IMG/VR virus record: IMGVR_UViG_3300050159_000048
Source of the DNA: a virus
Lineage: Duplodnaviria > Caudoviricetes
Direction: 5' to 3' (one strand)
DNA length: 64,000 nt
Shown in pieces: positions 42,372-59,763 of the stretch. Each line of letters starts with the position of its first letter. The stretch's first letter is position 1. The notes beneath the pieces are model-generated. The model was not told the DNA's origin. It did not search any database and saw nothing but the letters and a program-made list of their open reading frames with translations. A program made the position numbers and the translations under genes.

Positions 42372-43161
42372 CAACATCCATTAGGGTTTGCAGATAATAC
42401 AACACTTCCCAGATGTTAGGAACCAGGCGCTGCCTGTCGTATTCCATATATGGAGTGGAGAAGGCTTCAATCACCTTCTTCACTTCGGCTGCCTTGGAAT
42501 CATCATACCAATAGAACTTGACAATATCAAACTTGTCGCGTTCCCACCACTCCTTTAGTGCTCCAAGCCCCATTGGCTCAACGCCAATAAGCACGACGTT
42601 TTGAGGGGTGCCCTGTTCGTGTACCAAGTACATGACTTGCGTTCGAGCAATCTCTTTCTTTGCTTCTACGATAGCAGCTTGGCGGTTACCCAGCCAATAG
42701 CTCCAGCCCCGCCACTCTTTATACACCAAATCTGGTCGAGCGGGAAGATCGTCAGGCAGATTCCCTGGCATGCGAGCCCAAACCAGCCACTCGTTCATGG
42801 TCTGGAGCTTTAGTTTGTGCACGTACTGGATCGCCTCAATCATTGGGCGCCAAGAGATAGTTGACCGCTTGTTAAACTCGTTGTTTGTGCCTAAGAAGTC
42901 ATTCCAAGACACCCACTCCTTCGTGTATACACGGTACGGAAATTTGGGTATAGTTTTTGGCTTCTCACGCTCCCACCATTCCTGAAACTTACCGCGCGAC
43001 GGCAGCATTTGCTCCCGCATGAACGTACGAGCCTCATCCCACGGAAGGTAGTTCGTGTTGCGACGCCCTGATACCTTTGGTTTGGTCTTCTCTGCAATGC
43101 GAGCGTCGATTTCCTCGTCCGTCAACTCGTCTTCAGGCACGTACTTTGCTGTATCGTTCAT
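42310..43161 (-). CDS. protein with two integrase-repeat-unit-like repeats
   Basis: YLPW.EAR.F...W.EW...P..IP..P...Y..EW.SW.DFLG repeated twice. Confidence 0.65.
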   Translation of the reverse strand: MNDTAKYVPEDELTDEEIDARIAEKTKPKVSGRRNTNYLPWDEARTFMREQMLPSRGKFQEWWEREKPKTIPKFPYRVYTKEWVSWNDFLGTNNEFNKRSTISWRPMIEAIQYVHKLKLQTMNEWLVWARMPGNLPDDLPARPDLVYKEWRGWSYWLGNRQAAIVEAKKEIARTQVMYLVHEQGTPQNVVLIGVEPMGLGALKEWWERDKFDIVKFYWYDDSKAAEVKKVIEAFSTPYMEYDRQRLVPNIWEVLYYLQTLMDVVTREQMIATPSRSTLELQRV

Positions 43162-43747
43162 TCACTTTATCCCAGTTAACAACATTCCACCACTTGTCAA
43201 TGTATCCAGCACGGTCAGCAGGATACTGGAGGTAGTGCGCGTGCTCCCACAGATCACAAGCAAGGAGTAGCGTAACCCCGTCTTCTGTGAGTGGGCATCC
43301 ACCATTGGGTGTTGTTTTGATTTGCAGTTCGCCTTTATAAACTACGAGCCAACACCACCCCGAGCCAAATAACCCCGTGGCCTTTTCGACAAATTGTTTC
43401 ACAAATTTGTCATACGATCCGAACTTCTCATCGATCGCTTTCTTCAGCTCGTCTGACGGTTTCCCAACCGAATCCGAAGACGTCATACCATCCCAGTAAA
43501 AAGTATGATTAAATGCTTGAGTGACATTGTTGAAGAACTTGGAATCTACTCGCTTGATCAAATCTTTTGAGATGATATCTTCAAGATCCCACCGCGCATA
43601 CATGGTATCCTTAGCAAGCTCATTTGCCGTATCGTAATACTTGCGAGTATGCTTATCGTAATGATACTCAACAACTTCCTTGGATAGGTGCGGCTCCAGA
43701 GCGTTTTTAGCGTATGGAAGCGCTGGCATTTTGTAGGTCATTGGCAA
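43133..43747 (-). CDS. sodB: Fe/Mn superoxide dismutase
   Basis: LPYAKNALEPH, HYDKH, NHTFYW, FGSGW.WL, DLWEHAHY; TAAATA upstream; metal specificity not determined. Confidence 0.95.
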   Translation of the reverse strand: MPMTYKMPALPYAKNALEPHLSKEVVEYHYDKHTRKYYDTANELAKDTMYARWDLEDIISKDLIKRVDSKFFNNVTQAFNHTFYWDGMTSSDSVGKPSDELKKAIDEKFGSYDKFVKQFVEKATGLFGSGWCWLVVYKGELQIKTTPNGGCPLTEDGVTLLLACDLWEHAHYLQYPADRAGYIDKWWNVVNWDKVNERYSKVRA

Positions 43748-44346: not shown

Positions 44347-44757
44347 TGCGAACGATTCCATATTGAGATCGTTCCCCAATGCGGAGGGATCGTTCTCGAA
44401 TTCTTCGCCTCCAATATCAAAATCCATGTCATCGGGGGACGACATGGAATCACCTGGAGTCATAGCTGGTGATCCGTTTGATTGATCGCCCACTAGTTGT
44501 TGACCCACATCAGTCAGTTGACCTGACTGATCAATGATGTTTGAATCTTGAGCCAATGTCCGACCTGAGTCGGTCAACTCTGCGCGTTCAGCAGTACCGG
44601 TAACCGCTCCAAGTCGCATCAGCATATCCCGCGCATTAACAAGGTTTTGCGATCCACTAAGTCGCTGCGATGCAATGGTTGGATTGTCCGTACTAGCCAG
44701 GATGGCCAGAACGCGTTGTTGGTGGTTGGTAGGACGAAGAGTGTTTAGAATGCGCAT
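44323..44757 (-). CDS. hypothetical late protein
   Basis: TATAAATA at 44777; GGAG SD. Confidence 0.7.
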   Translation of the reverse strand: MRILNTLRPTNHQQRVLAILASTDNPTIASQRLSGSQNLVNARDMLMRLGAVTGTAERAELTDSGRTLAQDSNIIDQSGQLTDVGQQLVGDQSNGSPAMTPGDSMSSPDDMDFDIGGEEFENDPSALGNDLNMESFALLRELLK

Positions 44758-44779
44758 GTGAGCTCCGGTAATCACATAT

Positions 44780-45352
44780 TTATAACCGACCCTGCGCAAT
44801 GAGGTGTAACTGAAGGATAATGGTTAACGCATATGAAATAGCGTGGCCCCTCTTGAAAGCGTATGAACCTTCAATCTTTTCGTACAGTTTATCCCGGGTT
44901 TTGGCCTTATTTCGCATGTATTCCGCTAGCAATTTACGCTTACCCGGACGAATAATAGCCAATACGTCGGCAAGTTCTTGTACAGACGTTGGTTTCATCG
45001 TCTGGAGCAAATCTGCATGTTTACCAATGTGAAGCAGTCGTTCGACGACTGCTTGGTCTTGCAGCATGTCCCAGTCTGGCTCCTTCTTACAGAGCGTACG
45101 AAGTTCCGTCTTGTCTTTGACTACATCCAAACAAGATAGATGCAAGAAGTCAATCTTAAAGTAGCCCAAATCAGCTGCCTGGTCGTAAGGGATTGCAGCA
45201 ACGTTGGTGTATGGATCAACAGGGATGCTCTGAAAATAGTGTCCACAGTTGTGTTTGACAAGTTCGCCGTTGCGCACCATAGACGCAGGGATCGCCTGCT
45301 TCATGATGGTGCGTGGGTCGAAAGCGGTAGGGAAGTCGATGTCAATATCCAT
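44780..45352 (-). CDS. DNA polymerase III alpha (DnaE)-like fragment
   Basis: DIDIDF, HNCGHY, GYFKIDFLHL, A..RPGK, YAFKRGHAISYA; TTGACA-18-TACAAT promoter. Confidence 0.8.
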   Translation of the reverse strand: MDIDIDFPTAFDPRTIMKQAIPASMVRNGELVKHNCGHYFQSIPVDPYTNVAAIPYDQAADLGYFKIDFLHLSCLDVVKDKTELRTLCKKEPDWDMLQDQAVVERLLHIGKHADLLQTMKPTSVQELADVLAIIRPGKRKLLAEYMRNKAKTRDKLYEKIEGSYAFKRGHAISYALTIILQLHLIAQGRL

Positions 45353-45395
45353 GTTGACATTGTACGGACTTTATATGTGGGTTGTCAAGTACCTG

Positions 45396-46691
45396 TTAAA
45401 AGGTTTCAGCCTTGATGCGGCGCCAGCCGTGTGTACCGTACACATACACATAATCACCGTCGGCAATCGTGTCGCCGATGTTACCAGGGGACGATGACGA
45501 CATTGGTACAGCTCGTGGCATCATAGGAGCAGAGAATACAAACTCCGTCCACCGGTAATCCGTCGCATACGAACCCTTACCATACTGACCTCGGAACGTG
45601 AATCCTCGACCAGCAAAGTACGACTCACCAGACCTCGTAGGTACGACCGCAACTGCGTCTGGTTCGCCCGGTAGTTCAAAGGAGAACTTCAGGGGAGAAA
45701 CAGAAGTCACTGTTGCAATCTGGCCAGCGCGACCCGACAAAGATCCACGCGGTTTGTTTGCGATCAATACAGTATCGGACGGCTCCAACATAACACCGAA
45801 CCGGTCACCAACAGTGACTGGTCGTTCTAGTACGGAGCGCCAGCCTGTTCCTGTGTGCTGAACTGCGTGGCCGTCCAACCCTTCCCATTCACCTTGTCCG
45901 TTGCTGGAGACAATGAAGGTAAAGTTGTAGGCGTCGTCACGCTCCATCTCAGGAGGTGTTGATAATTGGTCATCGAACAGGTTCGGGTCATAGATGGGTA
46001 GACGCCAAATCACACCGTTCACGAAACTGTCAACGTACTGCTTATTAACAGCGTGTTGAGCGTGAGTTGCTGGCTCTGACAGCTGCAGGCATTTGAAGGT
46101 TTCTGGGAATACAATTGCTTCGTCGGTACTATCCGCACCCAAGCCAATCCATTCTTCTCCGTCCCACACTCGCATCAACTTGATTGACGTGTCGTACCAC
46201 AGCTGTCCGACTAGTGGTGAAACGGGAGGTTGATCATGTGCGAAGTTCTCCAGCATGAATACTAGATTCTGCTGTACCGCTTCACCCCACGACATCCGTT
46301 TACCGTACGTTGATGACCCCTGCCCGAGAAGCAGAAGTGATGTTGCTGGCTTCGGAACAGAATAAGTTAGGGTTAATGGAGCATGGCCAACAACCTCAAT
46401 ATTGGTGCGTTCAATCTTTTCACGCACAGGAATGATCGTTTTGTCATGCTCAAGCATGCTTTGACCATTCACAGTGTACGCGCCAGCTGTAGTTGGATCA
46501 CCATCAACGTTAAACTCAAACCCGTCAACAAAACGAGCGGTAAAATCACCAGAAATGACGAAGTGGTGCACCCCATCAACTGTGTATAACTTTGTGGGCT
46601 GTGCTGTAGACAGATTGTTCGTGCCGTTTGATTCAAACGGCAGAATGTTAGCCACATCAACGCCAGAAGATAACTTAATAGAATAGCTCAT
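45396..46691 (-). CDS. tail/baseplate-associated structural protein
   Basis: LENFA..PP.SP..GQLWYD, HAVNKQYVD, C-terminal SSPG.IGD...D.DY.YV motif. Confidence 0.7.
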   Translation of the reverse strand: MSYSIKLSSGVDVANILPFESNGTNNLSTAQPTKLYTVDGVHHFVISGDFTARFVDGFEFNVDGDPTTAGAYTVNGQSMLEHDKTIIPVREKIERTNIEVVGHAPLTLTYSVPKPATSLLLLGQGSSTYGKRMSWGEAVQQNLVFMLENFAHDQPPVSPLVGQLWYDTSIKLMRVWDGEEWIGLGADSTDEAIVFPETFKCLQLSEPATHAQHAVNKQYVDSFVNGVIWRLPIYDPNLFDDQLSTPPEMERDDAYNFTFIVSSNGQGEWEGLDGHAVQHTGTGWRSVLERPVTVGDRFGVMLEPSDTVLIANKPRGSLSGRAGQIATVTSVSPLKFSFELPGEPDAVAVVPTRSGESYFAGRGFTFRGQYGKGSYATDYRWTEFVFSAPMMPRAVPMSSSSPGNIGDTIADGDYVYVYGTHGWRRIKAETF

Positions 46692-48505
46692 ACGCCTGGA
46701 TGGATTAGCACCTCAATCAATGTTCCCACTGCTGGTGCGGTCGCGAACACGATCGAGTTAGATGTATCACCAACCGATCCAACTTCTTGGTATGCTAGAG
46801 CGCGTGGTGGTGTGCTGGTGGAAGTTTGTGATTGAAGAGTAGTGATACTGGTGAACAAGTTCGATCCAGAAGACGGTGCTGTGATCACAACAGCGGATGT
46901 CGGACCGTACACGTCGGATGTTAAGTACAACTCTAAGAACGTACGACGCTGCTCCATGGTAACGGAGATCGATAGCGAGGCTGCTGTGAGTGCCGCATCA
47001 ATCAACATAAACAGCTCACCGTATGTTGGTTGTGATGCAATTGATATGGTGACTGGTACAGCAGCCGCACCGTTCAGCGCTACGTCAAAACCGTACACGC
47101 CAGCTGACAACCCGGTTACTCGCGTATCAATTGCTAGCGGGTCAGTGTGGCTGAATTTAGCCGTTGCCACGCCACGCTCAGACATGTACTTCTTATTGCC
47201 GTCAACAAACACTTGCAACCGATTCGATCCAACGTCATAAGTCTCACCCAAGTTGAAAGTTGTTGTAGTACCGTCGCCATCAATTAGCAGACGGTGGACG
47301 CCGCGGTAAAGTTCTGATACACTCTGATCGAGAATCTGAACAGCGGTGTAAAGCGGAATAAGAGGGTAGCCTGGGGTGCTGTCGGCATTAGCTGCAATCA
47401 CACTACGCGCATACGGCACGGTCATGTTGTAAATGACGGAAGATGCTTCGTGGGTGTGAGTAAACGGAGCCATTTGACCCGAAACAACAACGTCAGCCAT
47501 ACCTGTGCGCGAAAGTGTCAGCAAGCCTGTAGCTGAGCTGTATGAACCAGCATCAACCACGCCGTCGCTTGTACCGCCACCACCAATGCCAGAAACAGCT
47601 GTTGAGATTGCTGTATCAACATAAATCTTGTTGGTTGCGTCTGTGTTGGCGGCAGGATCACCAACAGATTGCAGGCGACGATCGCCAAACGACAACGCGC
47701 CTGTACCAGCGCTAACAAAGATGCCTGCGGCAGTGTCTAGCGTCAGAATACCGGTAATGGTGTCACCGGTCTTGAGTACGCGGTCGTTAACCGTTGCAGT
47801 GACGGCGTTAACGTCGGTGGTCAATTGTGAGTCAGATGCTTGACGATCGGAGGTCTCAGTAACCAACGCAGCTTGTACAGCAGCCACTTGTTGGTCAACA
47901 TACGCCTTGTTTGGAACGTCAATGTTTTGCGTTGGGGCGTCAGCGACAGTAATTACTGTGCCAGAACTTGCTACAATTGAACCAGTCGCTAGAGTCACCG
48001 TACCGTTTACCGTACCACCAGACGTACGCAGGTATCGTGCATCACCTGTCTGCATGTTCAAGGCATCGGTTGCCAGTACAGCATCGCCAAGACCGGTGAT
48101 CCGGTTGCCTGTTAGGTTTAGAATACCCGCAAACGAGGTCATCATTGCCACCCAGCCAGTACCGCCCCATACGTACATGCCTTGTGTCGTTGGGTCGCTT
48201 GGGTAGTTTGGATCTACATAGTCAGCGTTCTTGTACCACATCTGACCCTGCATTGGTGACAAGGGGCGAGACTTGTATGCAAAGTTCTCTGTCAAGTACA
48301 CTAAGTTGTGTTGGATCAACTCACCGTAGTCGGTGATGCCTCGGCCGGCCAGTACCAGCGATGAGTTTGATGTGACAGCGGTTGCGCCTGATGCTGAATT
48401 TACGTACAGGGCAGGAGACCACGGCAGTTGGGTGCCGTCAATCTGGAAAGGCTGGACAATGAATGACCCATTCGCAGGGTCTGTGTGCTGAAATACGTAA
48501 CTCAT
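46688..48505 (-). CDS. tail fibre-like structural protein
   Basis: LTENFA..S.PL.P.QGQ.WY, DATNKIYVD, VPNKAYVD, THTH; TAAATA at 48533; GGAG SD. Confidence 0.75.
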   Translation of the reverse strand: MSYVFQHTDPANGSFIVQPFQIDGTQLPWSPALYVNSASGATAVTSNSSLVLAGRGITDYGELIQHNLVYLTENFAYKSRPLSPMQGQMWYKNADYVDPNYPSDPTTQGMYVWGGTGWVAMMTSFAGILNLTGNRITGLGDAVLATDALNMQTGDARYLRTSGGTVNGTVTLATGSIVASSGTVITVADAPTQNIDVPNKAYVDQQVAAVQAALVTETSDRQASDSQLTTDVNAVTATVNDRVLKTGDTITGILTLDTAAGIFVSAGTGALSFGDRRLQSVGDPAANTDATNKIYVDTAISTAVSGIGGGGTSDGVVDAGSYSSATGLLTLSRTGMADVVVSGQMAPFTHTHEASSVIYNMTVPYARSVIAANADSTPGYPLIPLYTAVQILDQSVSELYRGVHRLLIDGDGTTTTFNLGETYDVGSNRLQVFVDGNKKYMSERGVATAKFSHTDPLAIDTRVTGLSAGVYGFDVALNGAAAVPVTISIASQPTYGELFMLIDAALTAASLSISVTMEQRRTFLELYLTSDVYGPTSAVVITAPSSGSNLFTSITTLQSQTSTSTPPRALAYQEVGSVGDTSNSIVFATAPAVGTLIEVLIHPGV

Positions 48506-48554
48506 CTGAGCGAACTCCAAAGATATGTTACGTATTTATGCCCCGGTTAGGCGC

Positions 48555-49838
48555 TCAACTCACCTTTTCAACGTCTCCACCAAATGCCAGCTTGAATGCG
48601 GCCAGCTGAATTGCTCGGTAGTGAGTCTTTTCAATCGCGCAATTAGTATACCACACGTCCTGTCCCAGGTCCAACGGGCATGAACTCTTGCACAACAGAC
48701 GAACCTCACACGATCCGCAATGATCGTCTCGGTTTAGGTTGACACTCTGAATGCGAATGCCTTTGATAAACATCAGGTTTCCGCCGTTATACGACTCGTC
48801 TACGTTTTGACAAGTGCGAACGTTCCCCATCATATCCATAGTGATAAGGCGACTGTCATCAACACCGCAATTCGACTTCAGTAGAGGTTTCTTTTGCGAT
48901 TGCAGTGACCGTGCGTACGGCAGCACTCCCATACCGGTATGAAACAGGTTGTTTGCAAGCAGTGCGCCCTCTCTTGTCTCACCGTACTGTCGGTATTGAT
49001 CCAGATGCGCATCCAAATACCGTGTCAGTATTTCGCGGTACTTCGGGATATCGTCACCTGTGATCACATGCATTGTTGAATTCTCTGTCATCTCCTTGTC
49101 ATATACACGACCGAGTTCGTAACTTAGCTGCTTACGTGGCAGCTGATTACGGTCAAGATAGTCAACAAAGAAGTCGTTAATGCGAAACAGATCGTAATTT
49201 GTGCGGCTAATCACAGGGTTAAAGCTGTACTGCACTTGTTGTGGGCACTCTTCTGCGATCTGCTGAAACACTTCCACCTTTTTGTGAAGAAACTCCTTGC
49301 CACGTAGGGTCTCATGGCCGGGACCGTCGTGAGAGATACCCATCGCAACATTGCCCTTGAGCTGCTTGAAGAAATCAATATGTTTGCGATGTAGTGGCGT
49401 CCCATTGGTGGGGATGTACCACGTAATTCCCTCGCGGTCAAACCTCTCCATTAGTGGAACAATGTCATTCCAATACAAAAGAGTCTCTCCGCCCCACAGC
49501 TCAAACCTCACAAGCTCAGACAAATCCAGATGCCGCTCAATGTTCTTGATCAGGATCGGAGTGACGCCGTTTGCGGCTCGTTCGTTTGGATTACCAATGT
49601 CTTTCTGCATGCAATAACCGCAGCTGTAATTACAGCCTTGACCCAGAGAGATTTTAATCGTTTCTGGTTTCTTGGTTACGTGCAGCGCTCCAAATCGGTC
49701 CTTGAGTTGATCCCACTCCGGCGGCTCAGTAAACGGAGCCGTTAACGGCGTACCATCAACACTATACAGCCCGTTTGTCTTGTTGTCGTAGAGGAATTCT
49801 GTACCAGACGTGGATACTTTGAATTTGGTTGGATTCAT
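48555..49838 (-). CDS. radical SAM/SPASM maturase
   Basis: CNYSCGYC, WGGETL, SPASM cysteines C-G...C-Q...CGSCEVRLLCKSSCP...C; short RRE-like N-terminus. Confidence 0.93.
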   Translation of the reverse strand: MNPTKFKVSTSGTEFLYDNKTNGLYSVDGTPLTAPFTEPPEWDQLKDRFGALHVTKKPETIKISLGQGCNYSCGYCMQKDIGNPNERAANGVTPILIKNIERHLDLSELVRFELWGGETLLYWNDIVPLMERFDREGITWYIPTNGTPLHRKHIDFFKQLKGNVAMGISHDGPGHETLRGKEFLHKKVEVFQQIAEECPQQVQYSFNPVISRTNYDLFRINDFFVDYLDRNQLPRKQLSYELGRVYDKEMTENSTMHVITGDDIPKYREILTRYLDAHLDQYRQYGETREGALLANNLFHTGMGVLPYARSLQSQKKPLLKSNCGVDDSRLITMDMMGNVRTCQNVDESYNGGNLMFIKGIRIQSVNLNRDDHCGSCEVRLLCKSSCPLDLGQDVWYTNCAIEKTHYRAIQLAAFKLAFGGDVEKVS

Positions 49839-50977
49839 GGTTCAGGCTTTGTTATAGTGTACAGAGGAATTACTTGACCTTGCTTCGCTTGATCGCATGT
49901 AGTATCAAACAAACCGTATGGGGTTTCAACCCACCCCTGTTGATTCAGCAGCCTGTATATGCGCGTCCACGGTTTTAGCACCAGATTGGGTACAAAATTG
50001 AAATGTGGGTTTATGGTTACGGATTCTGACACAAATTTGAAGTAGTCGTAATGCTTGTTCTGTGTGGTTATTTCACGCACATATTGTGCGTATAGATCGA
50101 TCTTAGCTTGGAGACCGCGTGAAATGAAATGGTCAACATCATCTAGACTGTCTTTCATGATATCGAACCATGGTGTGCTCTTGCCGGACGTTGCTTGACT
50201 GAGCGTAAGGAAAACAGACGTGTATTGTAGGTACGTTACCTCCGTCAGCACCTGTTTTGGTTCTGAATCCTGAGCAAAAAAGTTGGTTTCTTGATAATCA
50301 ACAGATGCTAAGGATAGTACCTGATTCAATCCCTTGGTGATATCGTCGTGCACACCAACGTGGATATCCTTGCTGTGGGCAAACTCAACTAGTTTTGTAA
50401 CCGGTTCGGATGTTTCGCCACCGATTGTGCGCACAATTACCTTCAGTTTGAGTATTGGTGACCGCGCATGTAGCAGTTCCAATTTGGCAATAATGTCATC
50501 AACGATAGCGCCATTCTTTTTGCTCAGAAACACATCACTAAATGAGATTTCGTACACACTCCTAAAACGCAAGTCGTTCATCATAATCGAGTACTGCTGA
50601 ACAAATGCGTTGTCAGACATTTGCGTAGACACCATGCGGTGAGCGTGACGTACGTAGAATTCAAACAGTGCTGGATGATGATTCTTGAGCAGGTACAAAT
50701 CATCAATCGTGCTTACAGTGTCAAAGAAGTCAAAAAACCGAAGAATCTGACGCTCAGTTGCCTCATCTACCCCCGTTGGAATATACGGAGCAAACTGGTC
50801 ACTGGGTATCCAAGCGTCGCGCAGATAACACATCTGGCACCCCGCTTTGCACATATATCGTGAAAATATTGAGAACACCACCTCTCTGGACATGTTTTCT
50901 AGCGCATCGCCAGCAACAAAGTACTCTTTGAAGTTGTTGCTGGTTAATATCGAAGGTGTTACGTGCCTGTCACTCAT
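49835..50977 (-). CDS. divergent radical SAM protein
   Basis: CKAGCQMC motif; no GGEP and no SPASM cysteines. Confidence 0.7.
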   Translation of the reverse strand: MSDRHVTPSILTSNNFKEYFVAGDALENMSREVVFSIFSRYMCKAGCQMCYLRDAWIPSDQFAPYIPTGVDEATERQILRFFDFFDTVSTIDDLYLLKNHHPALFEFYVRHAHRMVSTQMSDNAFVQQYSIMMNDLRFRSVYEISFSDVFLSKKNGAIVDDIIAKLELLHARSPILKLKVIVRTIGGETSEPVTKLVEFAHSKDIHVGVHDDITKGLNQVLSLASVDYQETNFFAQDSEPKQVLTEVTYLQYTSVFLTLSQATSGKSTPWFDIMKDSLDDVDHFISRGLQAKIDLYAQYVREITTQNKHYDYFKFVSESVTINPHFNFVPNLVLKPWTRIYRLLNQQGWVETPYGLFDTTCDQAKQGQVIPLYTITKPEP

Positions 50978-52050
50978 ATTCCTACCCAGTGCAGTAGATT
51001 AGGTTTTTGCTTTAACTTCTGCGCGTGTTGGATTGCTACCATCATCATCTGGTAGAACTGAACACATTTGTCCGACTTCGGCTCTGTATCAAACATTCCG
51101 TGGAGATACTTCAACCCACATTCAGCCCTCGACGGGCATGTCCGACACACCGGCTTCAACATCGCATCTTCTTCACTCTCAGTTTTGGAGCGAGAGATAC
51201 TCACGGGAGATCGCCAATGTCCAACGGTAGTTTCCAGACGCTTATACTCCAAGAAGTCAAACTCCGGATACAGATATCCATCTGGCGACAGCACGAGTTG
51301 TTTGTGGTCGTCAAAGTAGTGCTTATCAAACGATTGTCCATGACCATCCACAACAACATCCAACCCAACCACATATAGCATCTGGATGAATTTGATAAAT
51401 GCATCAAAGAACTGGGGTAAATCAATCCGATCGATCAGAACATCAAATTTGTCCTTGCCACGAATGTGTCGCAGAGGGATTAGATTCAATCGTTTAACGC
51501 CTCCCTTAAAGCAAACGTCAGTGATTGCCTTAAGGGCTTGTAGGCTGAATACTTTTGGATTATCCAACGGCATTACGTATTGGAACTGAATCCCCTGCAC
51601 GCCATTCGTGTGCATCATCTGTAGCGTCTCAAAAATCTCAAATTTGGATCGATTCAACTCTTGGAACAAAAAGTCGTAACTAATACTGACTTCCAGCCGA
51701 GGCCCCCATTTTTCAAAGAACCATGCATGCTGAAGCATCTGACTACCATTCGTCTGAATGTAGTACGAGAATGTCTTAGCGGGGATCAGCAGCTCCAACT
51801 CGTCCATCACTCGGTCCATGATTTTGACGTATGAGAACGGCTCCCCTCCATGAAACGTGATTAGTGCAGGCGGATTCTCAACGAACCCAGCCTCCTTGAA
51901 GAAGTTCACAATGTCGGGGATGTCGACGGAGGTCATATGCTGACCTCCGATCGAGTCCTTGATGTAGTCTCGATCACAATATGTGCAGTTGAAGTTGCAC
52001 ACATTACCGAGATAAATCGTTACGCTGTTACATCCGGCTAGGGCGCTCAT
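50974..52050 (-). CDS. radical SAM protein with C-terminal Cys cluster
   Basis: CNFNCTYC, HGGEPF, QTNG, CRTCPSRAEC...C; start at coupled ATG 52050 (or 52077). Confidence 0.92.
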   Translation of the reverse strand: MSALAGCNSVTIYLGNVCNFNCTYCDRDYIKDSIGGQHMTSVDIPDIVNFFKEAGFVENPPALITFHGGEPFSYVKIMDRVMDELELLIPAKTFSYYIQTNGSQMLQHAWFFEKWGPRLEVSISYDFLFQELNRSKFEIFETLQMMHTNGVQGIQFQYVMPLDNPKVFSLQALKAITDVCFKGGVKRLNLIPLRHIRGKDKFDVLIDRIDLPQFFDAFIKFIQMLYVVGLDVVVDGHGQSFDKHYFDDHKQLVLSPDGYLYPEFDFLEYKRLETTVGHWRSPVSISRSKTESEEDAMLKPVCRTCPSRAECGLKYLHGMFDTEPKSDKCVQFYQMMMVAIQHAQKLKQKPNLLHWVGI

Positions 52051-52784
52051 ACGATTAGTTGACTCACTTCGTTCCAAAACTGGATGCGGGCGGCGATAGC
52101 TTCGCGTGCAGCAGTTTCTGCTTCCGCCACCTTCACAGGATCATCTCCGCACAACATCTCTACCACGTGTTTCATTGCTGGGCCATGTGAGTCTGTGTCC
52201 ACTTCAACGTGACGTTCGAGGTAGTATTTGAATTTGGGGGCGGACACGCCGTTGATCTCTAGCTGATCGATGAGTTTTGTAAACATGCTAGGAATGACAA
52301 GCTCGCGCCCGTACGCCAAAGCTGCCGCTACTACGTGTGGTTTGGCTGAGGTAGCATGCGCAATCGTTGTGCGGCAAAATGTCCGCGACGGTGTGGGGAT
52401 ATTGCTGAGGGCCATCAACATTGGTGTACCAGCCTTTAGTTGCTGAATGAAGTTCAACACGTTTGTGGTATCAGCACCAATCTCTCGCATCGCATCAATG
52501 TATAGTTCAAAATGACTCAAAATACCAAATGGCGTTTGATCGGTTTCTTCCCCTGTAACAATTTCGTTAATTAGTCGCCCTATTTCAGGTTGCTGAGAGG
52601 GGAGCCACGGTAAACCCGAAGGGGCGACCGTGTGCTGCAAGGACTTAGTCAACAGCATGAAGTCCCACACAGCAAACACGTGGTGTTCCATCAACACCTT
52701 AACACCGTTGATTGACACGTCAACGGAGAAGATTGGATGGTTGTTCAGTTCGTATGTTAGCTGAGAAACGGAAGGTGTTGTCAT
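52047..52784 (-). CDS. DUF3050 heme-oxygenase-like (PqqC/CADD fold) diiron oxidase
   Basis: HHVFAVWDFM, RLINEIV.GEETD, SHFELY..AM, GRE..IP.MF, YLERHVEVD.DSH. Confidence 0.88.
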   Translation of the reverse strand: MTTPSVSQLTYELNNHPIFSVDVSINGVKVLMEHHVFAVWDFMLLTKSLQHTVAPSGLPWLPSQQPEIGRLINEIVTGEETDQTPFGILSHFELYIDAMREIGADTTNVLNFIQQLKAGTPMLMALSNIPTPSRTFCRTTIAHATSAKPHVVAAALAYGRELVIPSMFTKLIDQLEINGVSAPKFKYYLERHVEVDTDSHGPAMKHVVEMLCGDDPVKVAEAETAAREAIAARIQFWNEVSQLIV

Positions 52785-54496
52785 AGTTTCACGATTTTGT
52801 GTGGTTTGTTGCCGTCTGCTTTGTTCAAAACTAGCATGTGGATCAGCGTAAGATAAAACACTCGTTTGTTGATGTCGTCAATCGTTTGATTGCTGCTTGC
52901 TTGACTTGGGTGGCCAGCGCGAGCCTGCCAGCGCTCGTAGAACGTCTTGACGTCCAAGGGATCGTCGGAGCCAACGTACGGCACAAAACTTTCTGCTTCA
53001 GGCAAACTTGTCTCATTCGACTCAACCATCGTCCAAAACACACCAAGTGTTTCCTGATAGTCGGGAAGATCATTCACCATAGCACTGACACGCTCAGAAG
53101 TGATGTGCTGGCCGGTGATGTGCTTATACATCAAGTGGACAATTGCCTTTGCGAACGCCTTTTGCTCTCCCATTTCGTTAACAGCTGTCCTCAGCTCGTT
53201 GTACTTCTGGATGAACACCTTATGGACAATATCGTCCTGCAAAGCAAGGAACAGACGGACGATGTTCTGACACATATCATCAGGACGAAACAGTTGTCCA
53301 GTGCCTGTATCGGTGTTACCAGCTGGGCATTGGTAGCAGAATCCGCGCAAGTCGCAGGTCTTGCATTGTTCTTCCTTGATAAACATCTCTTCGTATGCGG
53401 TCTGGAAGTTGTGATAGCGATCAACGTACACCAAATTATGCAGAATGTTGCCAAGCATTGTGTGCGGAACGGCTGTTTTCTGGTTGGTAAAGAAGTAGCA
53501 GCCAGAATAGTCGCCAGTTGCATCAACTGCGATCATATCAGAGCCAACCATGCAGTTATTGCCTTCTTTCTGGCCAACACCTTCACTGAATTGGATTTCA
53601 AATCCGGGTAGTGTCTGGAGCAGATGGACAATTGTCTTGTGCAAATTATCCCATTCGGAGGTACTCCACTGGATAAATCCGCCCTTAGAGCTCATCGTCA
53701 ACGGGTGAATAACCATAGTACGCAGGCCTTTCGCGTACAACGTCGTTGCCAGTTCTTCCAAGTACCGGGCATTTTCCACCGCAATAGTGCAGCGAACGCT
53801 GACCATATGATTGTTTTTGTGGAACTCTGGGATCAAGCCAACCATTTCAACAATGCGGTTGATTTTCTCCTGTCCAATTTCGCGGTGATCAACGTCTGCG
53901 CGCAGAGTATCCAGACTGATCGACATACACGTAAACTTATGGGAGAAGTACTCTGCAATGAATTCTGGAGTTAGCAGCAGACCATTGGTAATCATACCAA
54001 TATTCTGCCTATTCGTGTTTTGACGCAGGTCTTCTGCATACTGGCGGAGAAATTGCAGAATTAACTTCTTGTGGATCAGTGGTTCGCCGCCAAAAAATTG
54101 AAACAGTTTCCCGTCATGCTTATTCGCATTTAGTTGGAAGTCATACACTTGTTTCAGCGTCTCGGGCGTGAACCGGCCGTAGTCGTGGCTATGTTGTTCA
54201 TAGCAGTATGAACACGACAGGTTACAAGCGTTTGTAAGGATCAGGTTGACGTGCCGCAGGTCCTTAAATAGATGCGGCACGTGTTCGAGCTTTGCGACTC
54301 GCTCGGCTGGGCCCGGAGCAACCAAGTACTCTGTTAGTTCCTTCTCATGGCCGTCTGGCGTGACAATCGTCTTAATGTTGGTAGCGATTGTACCGTCGGT
54401 ATTGAGGTAGACAGACGGCTTATGAGCATCAAAGCGCTTGTATTGAGCGTCTGTGTATGTCTTTTTGGGATAGAACTTGATTACGCCTGTTTTCAT
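52781..54496 (-). CDS. radical SAM/SPASM peptide maturase with N- and C-terminal extensions
   Basis: CNLSCSYC, FFGGEPL, C.VG..MIAVD..G..SGC, CKTCDLRGFCYQCPA...C. Confidence 0.95.
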   Translation of the reverse strand: MKTGVIKFYPKKTYTDAQYKRFDAHKPSVYLNTDGTIATNIKTIVTPDGHEKELTEYLVAPGPAERVAKLEHVPHLFKDLRHVNLILTNACNLSCSYCYEQHSHDYGRFTPETLKQVYDFQLNANKHDGKLFQFFGGEPLIHKKLILQFLRQYAEDLRQNTNRQNIGMITNGLLLTPEFIAEYFSHKFTCMSISLDTLRADVDHREIGQEKINRIVEMVGLIPEFHKNNHMVSVRCTIAVENARYLEELATTLYAKGLRTMVIHPLTMSSKGGFIQWSTSEWDNLHKTIVHLLQTLPGFEIQFSEGVGQKEGNNCMVGSDMIAVDATGDYSGCYFFTNQKTAVPHTMLGNILHNLVYVDRYHNFQTAYEEMFIKEEQCKTCDLRGFCYQCPAGNTDTGTGQLFRPDDMCQNIVRLFLALQDDIVHKVFIQKYNELRTAVNEMGEQKAFAKAIVHLMYKHITGQHITSERVSAMVNDLPDYQETLGVFWTMVESNETSLPEAESFVPYVGSDDPLDVKTFYERWQARAGHPSQASSNQTIDDINKRVFYLTLIHMLVLNKADGNKPHKIVKL

Positions 54497-55416
54497 AATG
54501 GTACTATGATGTATGTGAATGATGGGTGTTCGTTATAAACTGGTGATCCGATGAAGCCACCAACGTCGTGTGTAATCGTCAATACGCCTATTGTGCCCTT
54601 GCATGGGGTTTGAACTACAAACTTCCCACCCTGTTGCACTACATCAACATTGGAAACCACTTCCCAAGTATCGGTCTGGATATGTGGGTCCAAGTCCGAA
54701 GCTTTAATTGGAGAATATCGCGGATTTAGTAGGTTGATCTCGAAGCTTGACCCAGATACCGCTATGATTCCAGACTGCACTGCCGTCACATTAGCTGAAA
54801 ACCAGGGATCATACAACGCGTGCTTAAAGGTCTCATTGCCTGCGACACGCACCCAAGTGCATTGGCGTTCAATATCAACAAAATCAAAGCCGTCTGTAAC
54901 TCGCACCAAGTCACTGTTGAGGAACATAACGTAGACGGGTAAATGCCCCACTCGAACAAAGGTGGCCAGCGGAACGAGCCTCACACGAGGACCATTATCA
55001 GTTGAGTGAACCGCACCGTTGCGCACGTTCACGATTTGACCATCTTGTTGGCGAGCATATAGGCCCATCGACGGCAGGATCGCAGATTCGTGGATTTGCG
55101 GCAGATTCGTGACTGTTCCTACAAACACGCTCTCATACACACCCGAATCTAAAGCATCCATTGCGGCATGTGCGTAGATTGGAGCCATCATGGATGGCAA
55201 CATCTCTTGGGAGTCTGGATTGATCAAAAAGTGAGCAAAGCTAAAAGCATCTGTGGCATTCATTCGTTGGTCACGAATCATGCGTAAGCCTGGCTTGAAG
55301 TGTGAGAAAAACTCCAATACAAGACTATCCGGCAACGTATCCACGTTCGATAGTTCTTGCATGGTAGCAAACCCTGAGGGACGTTGTCCCTCATCCATCA
55401 CTAACATATAACGCAT
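54493..55416 (-). CDS. orphan protein of the maturase operon
   Basis: coupled to the rSAM gene by a 4-nt overlap; no motif recognised. Confidence 0.8.
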   Translation of the reverse strand: MRYMLVMDEGQRPSGFATMQELSNVDTLPDSLVLEFFSHFKPGLRMIRDQRMNATDAFSFAHFLINPDSQEMLPSMMAPIYAHAAMDALDSGVYESVFVGTVTNLPQIHESAILPSMGLYARQQDGQIVNVRNGAVHSTDNGPRVRLVPLATFVRVGHLPVYVMFLNSDLVRVTDGFDFVDIERQCTWVRVAGNETFKHALYDPWFSANVTAVQSGIIAVSGSSFEINLLNPRYSPIKASDLDPHIQTDTWEVVSNVDVVQQGGKFVVQTPCKGTIGVLTITHDVGGFIGSPVYNEHPSFTYIIVPL

Positions 55417-55422
55417 ATGAAA

Positions 55423-55629
55423 TTACAGAATGCCGCGAGAGCAGTTGCAATTACAATTGCAGTTGCAAGCTGTACTGTAGTCGTCGTAGAAGATGTGGGT
55501 GTGGGATACGAGTTCGTTCAGGATCGTCAGCATGTCCTGGAACACTTGTGCTTGCACAGGATTGTCGGCTGATTGTGCAGCTGGCAGCGTTTGTACAGCG
55601 GTCTTGGTGGAAAGGTTGTCGGTTGTCAT
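55423..55629 (-). CDS. Cys-rich RiPP-like precursor peptide (core CNCNCNCNCSRGIL)
   Basis: GGAG SD; 68 aa; five Cys in CxC repeat with mixed synonymous codons; directly upstream of four rSAM genes. Confidence 0.85.
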   Translation of the reverse strand: MTTDNLSTKTAVQTLPAAQSADNPVQAQVFQDMLTILNELVSHTHIFYDDYSTACNCNCNCNCSRGIL

Positions 55630-55679
55630 ATGTTGGCTCCAATCTTGAGTTTACGATGGGTTAAGCATAAAGTCAAGCG

Positions 55680-56564
55680 TTACGGTGCTTCGTAGTGCGA
55701 CAACCAGAGAGGTAACACATACGTTGCAGTTGCAACTACGGCTCCTGTCCCAGCGCTTCGAATTTGCACAGCAATCGTTACACTAGAAAAGATGTCAGAT
55801 AGGCCGCCTGGGGGCCATGTGGCTGCTATTCCCACCACTCGAGTCGTCCCCAGGTTGTACCACGTAGACGGTGACATGTTGCCAGCAATCCAGTTAAAGG
55901 TCCCAGATTGCGCAGAAACTGTATACATTACATCATATGCACCCGAGGTGGCTGAATCAACTGGATTCATGTTAATCCATTGTCCACTACTAACAGCTTC
56001 TGATATTCCCGTAGTAGATCCGTAGTATCCGTATGTGTAGTACCACACTAAATTACCATCACTCTGGAATTGTAGATACGTATAACCATCAGCATCGTTG
56101 GCTGTACCGTAGTTAAACGTACGGCTGGATAATGCCACAGAGATGTCGGTAGCGCCTTTGGTGTCATCAACGGTGTGGTTGTGCGACAGCATACCGTTCA
56201 CAAAACCACGAATGTAGTTGATGTCACCGTGATCGATCGGTTCGTCCGCATTAAATGCAATATTGGTAGCTGCATTCCACGCTGGGGACGGGCCGCTGGA
56301 AGTCTTCGTCACATCTTGACCTGTAGTACCGTAAGTAGTTACGTTACCAAATGTGTCAATACCCTGCCTATCCGCTACCGTGTGGTTGTGGCTAGCCATT
56401 GGGTTAATGATGTTTGGAATGAACGAATGCATATCACTAGCCAAAATTGGCTTGTTTGTTTGCATCGATGCCTTGAGGTTGGTAATAGTAGTTTGGATCC
56501 CGGATATTGTGTATCCGGGAGACAGGTTACTTACACCAGATGATGTTACGTTACGCTGTGCCAT
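55680..56564 (-). CDS. tail fibre/adhesin-like protein with two SHNH repeats
   Basis: two P-x17/18-SHNH repeats; beta-rich C-terminal domain. Confidence 0.7.
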   Translation of the reverse strand: MAQRNVTSSGVSNLSPGYTISGIQTTITNLKASMQTNKPILASDMHSFIPNIINPMASHNHTVADRQGIDTFGNVTTYGTTGQDVTKTSSGPSPAWNAATNIAFNADEPIDHGDINYIRGFVNGMLSHNHTVDDTKGATDISVALSSRTFNYGTANDADGYTYLQFQSDGNLVWYYTYGYYGSTTGISEAVSSGQWINMNPVDSATSGAYDVMYTVSAQSGTFNWIAGNMSPSTWYNLGTTRVVGIAATWPPGGLSDIFSSVTIAVQIRSAGTGAVVATATYVLPLWLSHYEAP

Positions 56565-56575
56565 AGGTTAACGCC

Positions 56576-58027
56576 TTATGAATACACAGCTGGGAACACT
56601 TGCCTCCAGCCGCCACCAGGTGGGTACGCGTTTGCAGGGCCACCAGTACCGGACGTAGCTGCCATGTAGATGCGGCCGTAAGCAATAGCAATGTCGCCAG
56701 CTTTGTATGTACCAGAACCGGAATAGATTACTGCAGTACCAGTACTACCAGCCACAGCTGCTGCAATTGCGCTGTTCATCTGACCGAGGTTAACAGCGTC
56801 ATTTGCAGTCGAGCCCGCCGTCACGTTACGAATTTGTGCACCAACCTGAAGCTGACCAGCAATTGTCAGATTACCGTTGGTGTCAATATACAGTGGACGG
56901 TTCGGTGTGTTAGACGTACGACCAGGGCCGCCTGAACCAATAAACATGCGGTTGCTGGAGTCGATACCCATCACCCAACCAATTTGGCCAGCGCGTGTCA
57001 TACCGTAGTAGCCGTAGTTATTGGTGTCAGCAGGCATGGTGACAGAATCAAAACCGTACGGATCATCAGCCACACCAGACGGATATGCGGAGATACCGCC
57101 GCGGGCGTGGAGTACGGAATTCGACAGAATTGTACCGGTTGTAGTGATCGTGCTCTGCACTGTCAGAGCACCTGTTAGCGTACCACCTGACAAAGGTAGG
57201 TAAGATCCGCTACCAGCACCAGATACTGCCGTGTCCACATATGTTTTGGTAGCCGCATCAGCACCTGCGACAGGAGCGCCGAGGTTTGAGATGCGGTTGG
57301 TATTCATGTCGATGATACCAGATGCCTGCGACGAACTAGCGCCTGTTGGGCCGAGAATCTCTTGCCATGCAGAACCAGTGTACACAGACAAGTTGCCTGT
57401 GGATTCGTTGTACCACAGCATACCCACCTGAGGTGCGCCCGGAGCCGTGCCAGTGGACACGAAAGTTGTCACTGGAGATGACCAACCCTCTGGCGACGCT
57501 TGATCAAAAACATGCACAACCATTCGGGGGATTACTGAAGCAGTTGGAGCAGCCGTTCCTGTGAAGTACGAACGCTTAATGAACGCTTCCGGCTCATACT
57601 TACCGAGACTGTAGTAACCCCACAGAGAAGTGCCGTCATACCAGTATTGACCAGTGACTGGAGAGGTCGGTTGTGTTGTAGCTACAACACCGCTACCGTT
57701 CAACAGCTTCCATTTGTTTGCAGCTGTTTCGGTAAGGTCATAGTAGTACCAGCCCTGCGAAGTGCCGGCGGTAGTGTTGTGGAAGTATAGCTTGCGTTCA
57801 CACCACATCTGTCCGCTGATTGCCACTGTTGGTGGGGAGGCAGATGCGAAGTTTTCTGTCAACCGGACGAAGTTCTCATTGACAGCTTCACCCCACTCAA
57901 CCGCACCGCGACCGAACAAACGTAGTGATGTTCCCTGAATGGAACTGTTAGGGCCGCTTTGACTTCCTGGTGGAATATCAAATGAGGTTGCTAGCGGATC
58001 TGAGTAATTGATTGTATAGACAGCCAT
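56576..58027 (-). CDS. tail fibre-like structural protein
   Basis: LTENFAS.SPP, GQYWYD, DAATKTYVD, YLPLSGGTLTG, DAVNLGQM; TATAAATA at 58061. Confidence 0.8.
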   Translation of the reverse strand: MAVYTINYSDPLATSFDIPPGSQSGPNSSIQGTSLRLFGRGAVEWGEAVNENFVRLTENFASASPPTVAISGQMWCERKLYFHNTTAGTSQGWYYYDLTETAANKWKLLNGSGVVATTQPTSPVTGQYWYDGTSLWGYYSLGKYEPEAFIKRSYFTGTAAPTASVIPRMVVHVFDQASPEGWSSPVTTFVSTGTAPGAPQVGMLWYNESTGNLSVYTGSAWQEILGPTGASSSQASGIIDMNTNRISNLGAPVAGADAATKTYVDTAVSGAGSGSYLPLSGGTLTGALTVQSTITTTGTILSNSVLHARGGISAYPSGVADDPYGFDSVTMPADTNNYGYYGMTRAGQIGWVMGIDSSNRMFIGSGGPGRTSNTPNRPLYIDTNGNLTIAGQLQVGAQIRNVTAGSTANDAVNLGQMNSAIAAAVAGSTGTAVIYSGSGTYKAGDIAIAYGRIYMAATSGTGGPANAYPPGGGWRQVFPAVYS

Positions 58028-58028
58028 G

Positions 58029-58077
58029 TTGGTTGCATCCTATAAAGGTACGAGATTACGTATTTATAGGTGCAACC
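58029..58077 (-). promoter_or_regulatory. T4-type late promoter TATAAATA in an SD-sequestering hairpin
   Basis: GGTTGCA-CCTATAAA ... TTTATAGG-A-TGCAACC; SD AGGA lies in the 3' arm. Confidence 0.75.
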
Positions 58078-58088
58078 ACTCGGTCTTG

Positions 58089-58811
58089 TTAGATTCCCAT
58101 CTCTGCGACCAGGGTCTTGATGATCGCAACTGCATCTGCGTGATCATCACGCTTATCCGCCCAGTAACTAGGACGAATTAGGTTTTCCATAATGATCTTT
58201 TGCTCAGGAGTTGTGCGTATGGTGAACAGTACACGAAACGTCCTGCTAAACATTAGCAGCCACGGTGACAGCTTACGAACACGAATCAAATGGATTGCAT
58301 CCTGTACTGGCATCCGATCAAACACTTCATCGATTGGAATCTCATGCTTCTCCGAGTAAGACATCAGCGTAGTAATGGACAACTTTGCCTGGTCCAGCGG
58401 AGACATCTTACGGTCAAGCCATTCGATGTAGATCGAATACACCTCGTCGTTCCGCCACATTGTCGGCGAAAATCCCTTCATCACCATTACCTTGATGAAT
58501 CGCTCAGGGACAGGTAGATCAACCGATTTGGAAAACTTGACAAACTCAATAAACGTCCGGAAGTACTTCGATGTTAGGAACGTCGCTGCTGGAGGAGGCA
58601 TGCGGTTCTGGGCCCGCATCCACAACTGGTAATAATGCCATGCAGTTTGACCCGACGGAGATTTCAACTCCGCCTCTCGCTTCATTTGCTTGCACTCGTG
58701 TTCCAGAAACCGTTTCTCAATCACGAACGTCTTCTTGCAATGTTTGCATGTGAAGCGTGCTTGAATTGATGTGGACGGACGGGAGGTCATTGTTGTAGGT
58801 GTGATTACCAC
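58089..58811 (-). CDS. hypothetical protein with C2H2 zinc finger
   Basis: CKHCKKTF....FLEHEC. Confidence 0.8.
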   Translation of the reverse strand: MVITPTTMTSRPSTSIQARFTCKHCKKTFVIEKRFLEHECKQMKREAELKSPSGQTAWHYYQLWMRAQNRMPPPAATFLTSKYFRTFIEFVKFSKSVDLPVPERFIKVMVMKGFSPTMWRNDEVYSIYIEWLDRKMSPLDQAKLSITTLMSYSEKHEIPIDEVFDRMPVQDAIHLIRVRKLSPWLLMFSRTFRVLFTIRTTPEQKIIMENLIRPSYWADKRDDHADAVAIIKTLVAEMGI

Positions 58812-58815
58812 GGGT

Positions 58816-59763
58816 TTAATCTGCTTTGTTTAGCCAAGAACTGTCGTGTGATACCTTAGTATCGTAGACGGAAAATTCAGTGATGACTTTACCGATATCC
58901 CACCTAGCCGTCAAGATCGTGACAATAGTGTCTAACCGAGCTTCAAATTGCTCCCGAGACCCGGTGTATTCGCGGTAGGTCAGCATTTGAGTAATGAAAC
59001 CACGCTCATCACGCTTGAATGCATTGCGTGACATATGCAAGGTTCTTTGTAGCCCCGTCAACTCCATCCAGTCACGGAGTAGCTGCAACTTACTCTCTTC
59101 CAACTCTACGGGAATGTGTGATTCAAAATAACAGTTGAGTGGCATTGGTTGATCAGCGATTGGTGCTGCCGGATGCCACGGCACAGTTTCAATCTTAACG
59201 CGTTCCACCTTGAACCCTTCAGTAACCAAACCATTCTCAATGTGCTTTGCGGCATAGTAGGCGGATGAATTTGTCCCGAAATGCTTGGATGAAGTCATCA
59301 CATCAGACAGTAGCTTTTGTCCGCTACTCAAGTTGAGAACAATAGGCTTCACCTTCAACTCGGCACAAATCTCCCGAAAATGAGTCAACCAACTCTGTTG
59401 TAGACCCGGAGGTGCCTTAACCGTCACGTGGATTTCATACGGCAACGGGTATTTGATGTCTTGCTCTTTGCGTTGCAGCATCGCCCACTTTTCTGCCTTG
59501 AGCGCGATCATGTCCTCAATTTCTTCATCTGAGAAATCAAGACTGTATGCAACAGATAACGCACACAAAGTTGTATCAACAGCTTCCTCAAGGATTCGCT
59601 CTCGCTCTACGAACCTATGATTCGTGGCAAATGCACCGTCAAATGGCAGGACTACCTTTGCCAATTCGCCAACCTCTTCAGCTGTCTTCAGAGCCTTCTG
59701 TGAAAGCGTCTTACTGTCTTGCTTGGATAGTTGGCGAATTGTGTCGATCAAGTGTTGGTTCAT
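58816..59763 (-). CDS. MazG-like NTP pyrophosphohydrolase fused to an unknown duplicated domain
   Basis: LKTAEEVGELAK...EEAVD; C-terminal YEIHVTV and YFESHI half-repeats. Confidence 0.75.
   Translation of the reverse strand: MNQHLIDTIRQLSKQDSKTLSQKALKTAEEVGELAKVVLPFDGAFATNHRFVERERILEEAVDTTLCALSVAYSLDFSDEEIEDMIALKAEKWAMLQRKEQDIKYPLPYEIHVTVKAPPGLQQSWLTHFREICAELKVKPIVLNLSSGQKLLSDVMTSSKHFGTNSSAYYAAKHIENGLVTEGFKVERVKIETVPWHPAAPIADQPMPLNCYFESHIPVELEESKLQLLRDWMELTGLQRTLHMSRNAFKRDERGFITQMLTYREYTGSREQFEARLDTIVTILTARWDIGKVITEFSVYDTKVSHDSSWLNKAD

Follow-up and report, generated by a model that had tools for sequence, protein, structure and literature searches.

The leader of a ribosomally synthesised and post-translationally modified peptide (RiPP) is normally treated as a disposable recognition tag, and the leaders of the NHLP and Nif11 families are homologous to a domain of a larger protein. 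Radical S-adenosylmethionine (SAM)/SPASM enzymes of the CteB, PapB and QhpD type form thioethers between Cys and side-chain carbons of Asp, Asn, Glu or Thr; one of them, QhpD, makes Cys-to-Asp and Cys-to-Glu thioethers in QhpC, a small subunit that stays in quinohemoprotein amine dehydrogenase. H-x-H motifs, in turn, form metal sites in trimeric phage fibres and spikes (the T4 gp37 tip, gp12, P2 gpV and the phi92 gp138 apex), where six His residues bind one octahedral ion; in the T4 proteins, the motif is set in Gly/Ser-rich beta strands of a homotrimer and the ion on the threefold axis is Fe or Zn. The subject of this study is a 68-amino-acid (aa) phage peptide with a Cys-Asn tail (55423..55629) that is encoded beside radical SAM genes and has, in its front half, an H-x-H-containing unit carried twice by its upstream neighbour. 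Its gene lies in a 64,000-nucleotide stretch (the window, whose numbering is used throughout) of the IMG/VR virus record IMGVR_UViG_3300050159_000048. This record, 174.6 kb in length and estimated to be about half complete, holds the peptide gene in a single copy. The genes of the peptide's block, and all features described within them, are on the minus strand.

Like the ranthipeptide or SCIFF systems (CteB-thermocellin, 5WGG, and PapB-freyrasin) and the NxxC-type peptides, the locus places a small Cys-rich peptide next to a radical SAM/SPASM enzyme, and its cysteines alternate with Asn, Asp, Glu or Gln, which are known thioether acceptors. It differs from these systems in being phage-encoded between fibre-like genes, in having three to four radical SAM-type genes together with a DUF3050 gene, in the lack of a protease or exporter gene, and in a leader that is a free-standing module. 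In the NHLP and Nif11 systems the leader is removed and the parent protein is unlinked, whereas here the gene of the parent protein is adjacent, and fusions and tail-less variants point to a shared complex. The neighbour's family, phrog_31780, includes ORF074 of Ralstonia phage RP12 and has never been characterised; no annotation linking it to a Cys-tailed peptide was found, and the literature on phage radical SAM, RiPP and fibre systems yielded nothing that describes a Cys-tailed peptide/two-repeat system.

The front half of the peptide is a true third copy of a unit present twice in the 294-aa protein encoded upstream (55680..56564), and the similarity is well beyond chance. The unit comprises 32 residues, an amphipathic helix followed by H-x-H-x-x-x-D. 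In the 294-aa protein it spans residues 35-66 (repeat 1, 56367..56462, with H59-N-H61...D65) and residues 104-135 (repeat 2, 56160..56255, with H128-N-H130...D134), and in the peptide it spans residues 19-50 (55480..55575, with H43-T-H45...D49), the region that would conventionally be called the leader. A gap-free alignment pairs peptide residues 21-50 with residues 106-135 of the larger protein, 8 of 30 positions being identical; the alignment to repeat 1 needs one gap because repeat 1 of the window has a one-residue insertion. Counted from the first His of the motif (position 0), all three units have in common G at -21, I or V at -18, A at -16, a second His at +2 and an Asp at +6. Positions -13, -10, -6 and -3, in heptad spacing, are hydrophobic, and Asn stands at -12 and -5. 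The two His and the Asp are invariant in MAFFT alignments of the peptide family and of the two-repeat family. The units are nevertheless not interchangeable, since the core of repeat 1 is aromatic (W or F in 58% at -3; Y, W or F in 59% at -6) and that of repeat 2 and of the peptide unit is aliphatic at these positions.

That the leader copies the His-x-His repeat of the adjacent protein had been proposed in a preliminary description of this DNA, made without database searches, and its open reading frames (ORFs), motifs and alignments are all correct; the likeness is borne out by significant matches at the BLASTP, profile and PHROG level. Pairwise BLASTP of the peptide gave expectation values (E) of 0.002 against repeat 1 and 0.008 against repeat 2. 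To keep the comparison unbiased, a hidden Markov model (HMM) was built only from upstream-protein repeats of other loci, leaving out the peptide and any window sequence, and run against the 1288 stop-to-stop frames of the window; it recovered only the 294-aa protein (E 2e-4) and the peptide (E 6e-3), the next match being at 0.73. With HMMs from 141 family members, the peptide scored E 9e-8 (repeat 1), 7e-5 (repeat 2) and 5.7e-7 (both), and the next matches were at 0.12 or above. The profile-profile alignment proposed in the preliminary description gave the same answer, and the likeness holds across relatives: hhalign of the peptide family against the two-repeat family placed 40 columns onto repeat 2 with a probability of 90% and E 1.7e-6. 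Among 38,880 PHROG families, the sole match of the peptide is phrog_31780 (E 0.0023), the family of the upstream protein. With this profile match and the fixed register, the peptide unit is, on sequence grounds, a member of the phrog_31780 helix-HxH family.

The extension of this likeness to the T4 fibre proteins gp12 and gp37, also put forward in the preliminary description, did not hold, as it is limited to the tripeptide H-x-H. An hhalign comparison of the two-repeat alignment with T4 gp37 gave a probability of 0.8%, with the aligned stretch off the HxH region, unit HMMs scored -11 to -17 bits on T4 gp37, and the window proteins had no Pfam fibre-repeat match. Homology to the gp37 HxH repeats is ruled out by the hhalign result and the negative HMM scores.

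The peptide ORF, as placed in the preliminary description, has a GGAG 7 nt ahead of its ATG and encodes a variable N-terminus, one helix-HxH unit, the stretch I-F-Y-D-D-Y-S-T-A, a (Cys-Asn)4-Cys ladder and S-R-G-I-L. Its homologues form 49 clusters, and the contigs that carry them reach 313 kb. Among them there is hardly any variation in residues 33-66 (helix, H-T-H, I-F-Y-D-D-Y-S-T-A, Cys ladder and R-G), and the first 30 residues vary. In the alternating tail (C55-C63, 55441..55467), the presumed radical SAM substrate, C57, N58 and C59 are invariant, and C55, N56, N60, C61 and C63 are each conserved in at least 90% of homologues. Tail variants include CNCNCAC, CNCNCDC and CECQCNC, so that consecutive cysteines are separated by N, D, E, Q or A. 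The locus L016 has the tail C-E-C-Q-C-N-C rather than a Cys-Asn ladder; just upstream of its module are genes for an Asp/Arg hydroxylase and three proteins of the fatty-acid-desaturase family (L016:113-2936).

Eleven loci were reached via the peptide (10 IMG/VR contigs and Ralstonia phage RP12), and the order two-repeat protein, peptide, orphan protein of about 300 aa and radical SAM/SPASM enzyme is kept in every one of them. The same order was recovered from the two-repeat side, in full at L013 and L021 and up to the contig end at L016 and L019. Among 50,697 deposited phage records the peptide was found in RP12 and RP31 only. In both, an unannotated 65-aa homologue (L001:6889-7086; NC_041911.1 82888-83085) is encoded between ORF074, the two-repeat protein, and ORF075, the homologue of the orphan. 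RP12 is a phiKZ-related phage (PMC5468394) and thus unlike the phage of the window, which indicates that the whole cassette is passed from one lineage to another.

Further relatives separate the unit from the tail. Two proteins, P0173 (332 aa) and P0183 (221 aa), hold three units in one chain, and both are without a Cys tail. Their units 1 and 2 match the repeat 1 and repeat 2 models best, and their unit 3 matches the peptide-unit HMM best (26.3 and 34.8 bits, respectively, against 24.0 and 24.8 bits with the repeat 2 model). Synteny with the window is seen on L017, the contig that encodes P0183, where the clamp loader is 51% identical and the next genes, including fibre-like ones, match in order. 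Two three-unit proteins lie there directly between the fibre paralogues, the third unit of the 231-aa one being divergent, and no Cys peptide and no radical SAM gene were found between the fibre genes. At L020, the order is a fibre C-terminus, a two-repeat protein with a beta domain, an 83-aa gene, a peptide of about 50 aa on the opposite strand, and a fibre N-terminus. The N-terminus and single unit of this free peptide are peptide-like (E 5.7e-7 with the peptide model), and the chain stops right after H-T-H-Q-F-T-D-D, without a Cys tail. The 83-aa protein (L020:884-1135) contains ...L-E-R-L-I-R-A-H-T-P-I-S-Y-Y, possibly a degenerate unit without the second His.

Judged from these sequence variants, the leader is a genuine module, shared with the neighbour, that has a function of its own. 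This own role is indicated by the fused third units with no radical SAM cluster at the position, the tail-less L020 peptide and the lack of processing genes, and most likely consists in docking the peptide onto the two-repeat protein; the leader would then not be discarded. The earlier proposal that it is not a disposable leader is therefore supported. The fibre-assembly function that was attached to it is hypothetical; the term 'fibre protein' for the 294-aa protein derives from gene context.

The N-terminal domain of the two-repeat protein, about 137 residues long and with both helix-HxH units, belongs to the phrog_31780 family. A profile search of 1.84 billion representative proteins recovered 265 two-repeat clusters; the N-domain of the 294-aa protein was the second-best match (E 1e-43), the first row of the query profile being this same N-domain. 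Exactly two units are present in 142 of the best 150 family members, and H59, H61, D65, H128, H130 and D134 are invariant in the two-repeat alignment. In a word-based search the 294-aa protein found itself and one relative, and the 307-aa orphan only itself; the homologues of both were taken from synteny. The two-repeat profile gave nothing below E 0.05 against the PDB, and look-ups in the ESM Atlas returned no named relatives. The AlphaFold2 (AF2) model of the 294-aa protein is of low confidence (mean predicted local distance difference test score, pLDDT, 61) and has helices at 42-57 and 112-126 and strands from 159 to 289. With the helices so placed, each H-x-H would cap a helix.

The strands form a predicted C-terminal beta-sandwich (residues 159-289, 55698..56090; pLDDT about 70-85) that matches phrog_11610 (E 8.6e-6) and, in fold searches, only generic immunoglobulin (Ig)- or PapD-like structures. 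It is variable or absent in homologues, and most family members have 125-140 aa and lack such an add-on. Where add-ons occur, at the C-terminus or inserted, they comprise a Hint domain, Gly-rich regions, beta-sandwiches or a lactonase-like insert. The Hint-like (intein/hedgehog-type) domain starts with C-F-P-A-G..., is C-terminal in the protein at L002:5617-6975 and in P0066, P0103 and P0195, and by its sequence suggests autoprocessing of the add-on.

The preliminary description had also looked to a predicted complex between the two proteins. When the N-domain (residues 1-140) was modelled with the peptide as a 1:1 complex, the score was 0.50, and the highest of three controls was 0.00. In the benchmark for this score, 58 of 80 solved complexes passed, as did 2 of 110 mismatched pairs. 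Both of these mismatches, but only 7 of the 80 solved complexes, passed with a score of 0.60 or less, so that support for the complex is weak. The predicted interface joins peptide residues 15-51, that is the unit and I-F-Y-D-D-Y, to partner residues 20-40, 52-65 (the end of repeat 1) and 109-134 (repeat 2). Taken together, the modelled complex and the fusions favour a shared bundle and would fit a pseudo-threefold 2+1 arrangement and layered homotrimers alike.

From these observations the following model can be drawn. A family in large, mostly uncultivated phages would be built from the unit G-x-x-[IV]-x-A, amphipathic helix, H-x-H-x-x-x-D, of which the neighbour gives two and the peptide the third, most likely in one helical bundle. 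Such a bundle would gather three H-x-H...D motifs, perhaps around a metal ion, and would dock the peptide on the two-repeat protein, which bears the variable C-terminal add-ons and is encoded between fibre-like genes. The likeness to fibre and spike sites is one of analogy, in that three H-x-H motifs could supply six His ligands. In T4 gp37, the motifs follow G/S/T-rich segments, while here the motif comes directly after an AF2-predicted helix, and the fibre and spike sites are those of homotrimers, while here the motifs would come from two chains, or from one, with pseudo-threefold symmetry. The co-encoded radical SAM/SPASM enzymes would act on the (Cys-X)n tail, probably through Cys-to-Asn thioether stapling as their likeness to CteB, PapB and QhpD suggests, and the Ig-like 307-aa protein would probably act as scaffold or binding partner. 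The whole of this reading, in which the peptide is a single-unit member of phrog_31780 docked on the two-repeat protein, with a radical SAM-modified tail and no disposable leader, is given a probability of roughly 0.55.

The enzyme most likely to act on the tail is the 571-aa radical SAM/SPASM protein (52781..54496), which has Pfam Radical_SAM and Fer4_12 matches and a sub-threshold SPASM match (17.8 bits, cut-off 21.5). Its best NCBIfam score is for the PapB ranthipeptide maturase (110.5 bits, cut-off 340), followed by QhpD (81, cut-off 453) and the SCIFF maturase (66.7, cut-off 425); as all scores are below their cut-offs, it is not a member of any curated NCBIfam family. Its best PDB match is 5WGG (CteB), with E 3.4e-9. 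Thioether stapling is the best guess for the chemistry because the enzyme is nearest to PapB, QhpD and CteB and the inter-Cys residues are N, D, E, Q and A; by this analogy, the Cys-Asn tail is probably stapled by the CteB/PapB-like enzyme. The comparison with QhpC and QhpD goes no further than the enzyme type, since the substrates are unrelated in sequence, the QhpD match is far below its cut-off and the biological setting is another.

Directly behind the peptide, the 307-aa orphan (54493..55416) is encoded, as it is in every fetched locus that has the radical SAM cluster. The AF2 model consists of tandem Ig-like beta-sandwiches (pLDDT 80.8, predicted template modelling score 0.82), for which fold searches returned only generic Ig-, Big2- or cadherin-like matches with a TM score of about 0.2. 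Neither a RiPP-recognition element nor a peptidase fold was found in these searches, nor was any catalytic motif, and Y162 is the sole invariant residue across 11 homologues. The Ig-like model and the single invariant residue point to a scaffold or binding partner, probably not a catalyst. At L005, two tandem Ig-like orphan paralogues (308 and 278 aa) follow the peptide (L005:7174-8969).

The remaining genes of the block were assigned to domains by Pfam, PHROG and NCBIfam profile searches. They are dense and co-directional and run from a fibre-like gene through the two-repeat, peptide and orphan genes and the radical SAM set to two more fibre-like genes. The set continues behind the 571-aa enzyme with a haem-oxygenase-like DUF3050 protein (52047..52784; PF11251, E 4e-80), a 367-aa radical SAM enzyme with Pfam, PHROG and NCBIfam matches (50974..52077), a 380-aa protein matching phrog_36229 (49835..50977) and a 427-aa radical SAM enzyme (48555..49838) whose TIGR04085 (SPASM) match at residues 324-390 scores 19.8 bits, below the cut-off of 27. 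A scan of 44500-58900 for promoters and terminators gave 13 against 17.8 and 15 against 12.3 expected from shuffled sequence, counts that are not regarded as above expectation; the TTGACT-17-TAAACT before the peptide is thus no evidence of a separate promoter.

The first fibre-like gene encodes a 483-aa structural protein (56576..58027) with matches to PHROG virion structural, tail and tail-fibre families and a weak YadA_stalk match; a PDB sequence search gave no match for it. The two others, encoding 610 aa and 431 aa, close the block (45396..48520) and have PHROG families in common with the 483-aa protein: virion structural and head decoration families in the case of the 610-aa protein, and two families of unknown function in the case of the 431-aa protein. 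The 610-aa protein matches phrog_14394/phrog_2647, the 431-aa protein phrog_15511/phrog_8309 and, weakly, DUF2793, and BLASTP ties both to the fibre genes of L017. The 483-aa protein ends in ...W-R-Q-V-F-P-A-V-Y-S, a motif found also in the homologues at L002, L005, L008, L017 and L020. Where it is readable, the gene upstream of the two-repeat gene is usually fibre-like and ends in W-[KR]-Q-x-[WFY]-P-x-x-[YW]-x; in sequence, this conserved end is a candidate docking site and may receive the two-repeat protein. In most readable loci the end takes the fuller form ...G-x-W-[KR]-Q-x-[WFY]-P-A-V-Y-[SA]. At L005, the gene with the W-[KR]-Q motif encodes a 90-aa protein with little beyond that end, and at L013 the two-repeat gene is preceded not by a fibre gene but by one for a 685-aa B12-binding radical SAM enzyme (L013:19-2076). 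Directly after the fibre block of the window, a 190-aa fragment of DNA polymerase III alpha (finger domain) is encoded at 44780-45352, and a similar one of 179 aa is present on L017. An Fe/Mn superoxide dismutase, encoded just downstream of the block at 43133-43747, may help to protect the oxygen-sensitive radical SAM clusters.

Other explanations of the locus have to be weighed against docking on the two-repeat protein. The pairwise identity of just 26-29% over 40-50 residues might raise the thought that amphipathic helices ending in H-x-H are alike by chance or composition, but G-21, I/V-18, A-16, N-5, H0, H+2 and D+6 are common to all three unit types, the HMM and hhalign comparisons are significant, the sole PHROG match is the neighbour's own family and the fused third units are peptide-like. 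Chance similarity is refuted by these tests and must be considered highly improbable. A classical RiPP would also place a small ORF directly ahead of a CteB/PapB-like radical SAM/SPASM gene and further tailoring genes. The unit would then be a leader that arose by duplication of the neighbour gene and serves as a handle for the radical SAM enzyme, and the core would be cut by a host or unlinked protease and freed at lysis as a toxin, signal or metal chelator. The NHLP and Nif11 leaders offer a precedent for such an origin, and it would agree with the failure to detect the neighbouring proteins in RP31 virions. It is nonetheless unlikely. No peptidase or transporter domain was found in any gene of the operon with Pfam, PHROGs and NCBIfam, and no peptidase or exporter in any other locus examined, which leaves room for a host protease; there is no conserved cleavage motif between unit and tail, and the sequence from the unit to the C-terminus is a near-invariant single block. 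Moreover, the unit occurs without the Cys tail and, on short contigs, without a radical SAM gene, either free (L020) or fused (P0173 and P0183).

Perhaps the two-repeat protein is instead a non-structural chaperone, a surrogate for a RiPP-recognition element that presents the tail to the radical SAM enzyme, with neither protein in the virion. Wherever the cluster is present, the two-repeat gene immediately precedes the peptide gene, and both the weakly supported complex and the RP31 virion data would be compatible with this role. Two-repeat proteins, however, are also encoded at L022, where the fetched stretch has no peptide or radical SAM genes, and at L020, beside a tail-less peptide; their variable C-terminal add-ons (Hint, Gly-rich, beta-sandwich, lactonase-like insert) are typical of surface or fibre proteins, and their genes sit between fibre-like paralogues, so that a chaperone appears as improbable as the classical RiPP. 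The docking model has points against it as well. A strict 2+1 stoichiometry is not universal, since L016 and L021 encode two two-repeat proteins per single peptide and L022 encodes two with no peptide within the 9 kb fetched. The complex prediction passes weakly, and the modelling may bring homologous amphipathic helices together regardless of any true contact; metal binding and thioether chemistry are both argued by analogy. Finally, liquid chromatography-tandem mass spectrometry of RP31 virions identified 32 proteins from excised bands (PMC5468394, Table S3), and the list includes none of ORF68-71, which are homologous to the fibre-like genes, the two-repeat protein and the orphan. The unannotated peptide is likewise absent from the ORF tables of that study (PMC5468394). 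As only excised Coomassie bands of low sensitivity were analysed and the peptide ORF was not in the tables, this negative is a weak one.

A more far-reaching version of the docking model, which is possible but doubtful, is that RiPP chemistry here builds a part of the virion. The peptide would be a stoichiometric subunit that completes a pseudo-threefold, possibly metal-loaded six-His bundle on a fibre adaptor, and its stapled (Cys-Asn)n knot would be exposed as a hardened tip that contacts a receptor or adds stability; the fused and tail-less variants would then be unmodified ancestral or alternative forms.

The comparative data provide a testable case of a RiPP leader as a structural module that is shared with a partner and persists without the modification machinery, and experiments are feasible because the cultured Ralstonia phages RP12 and RP31 carry the system. 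RiPP enzymology would gain a new type of substrate, a strict Cys-Asn ladder, and structural biology a candidate two-chain, pseudo-threefold His6 site. The finding would also define a family of 265 representative clusters that has so far been without annotation. Should the complex prove real, the stapling of a peptide by radical SAM enzymes would be tied to the way in which a phage protein complex, possibly a fibre, is put together.

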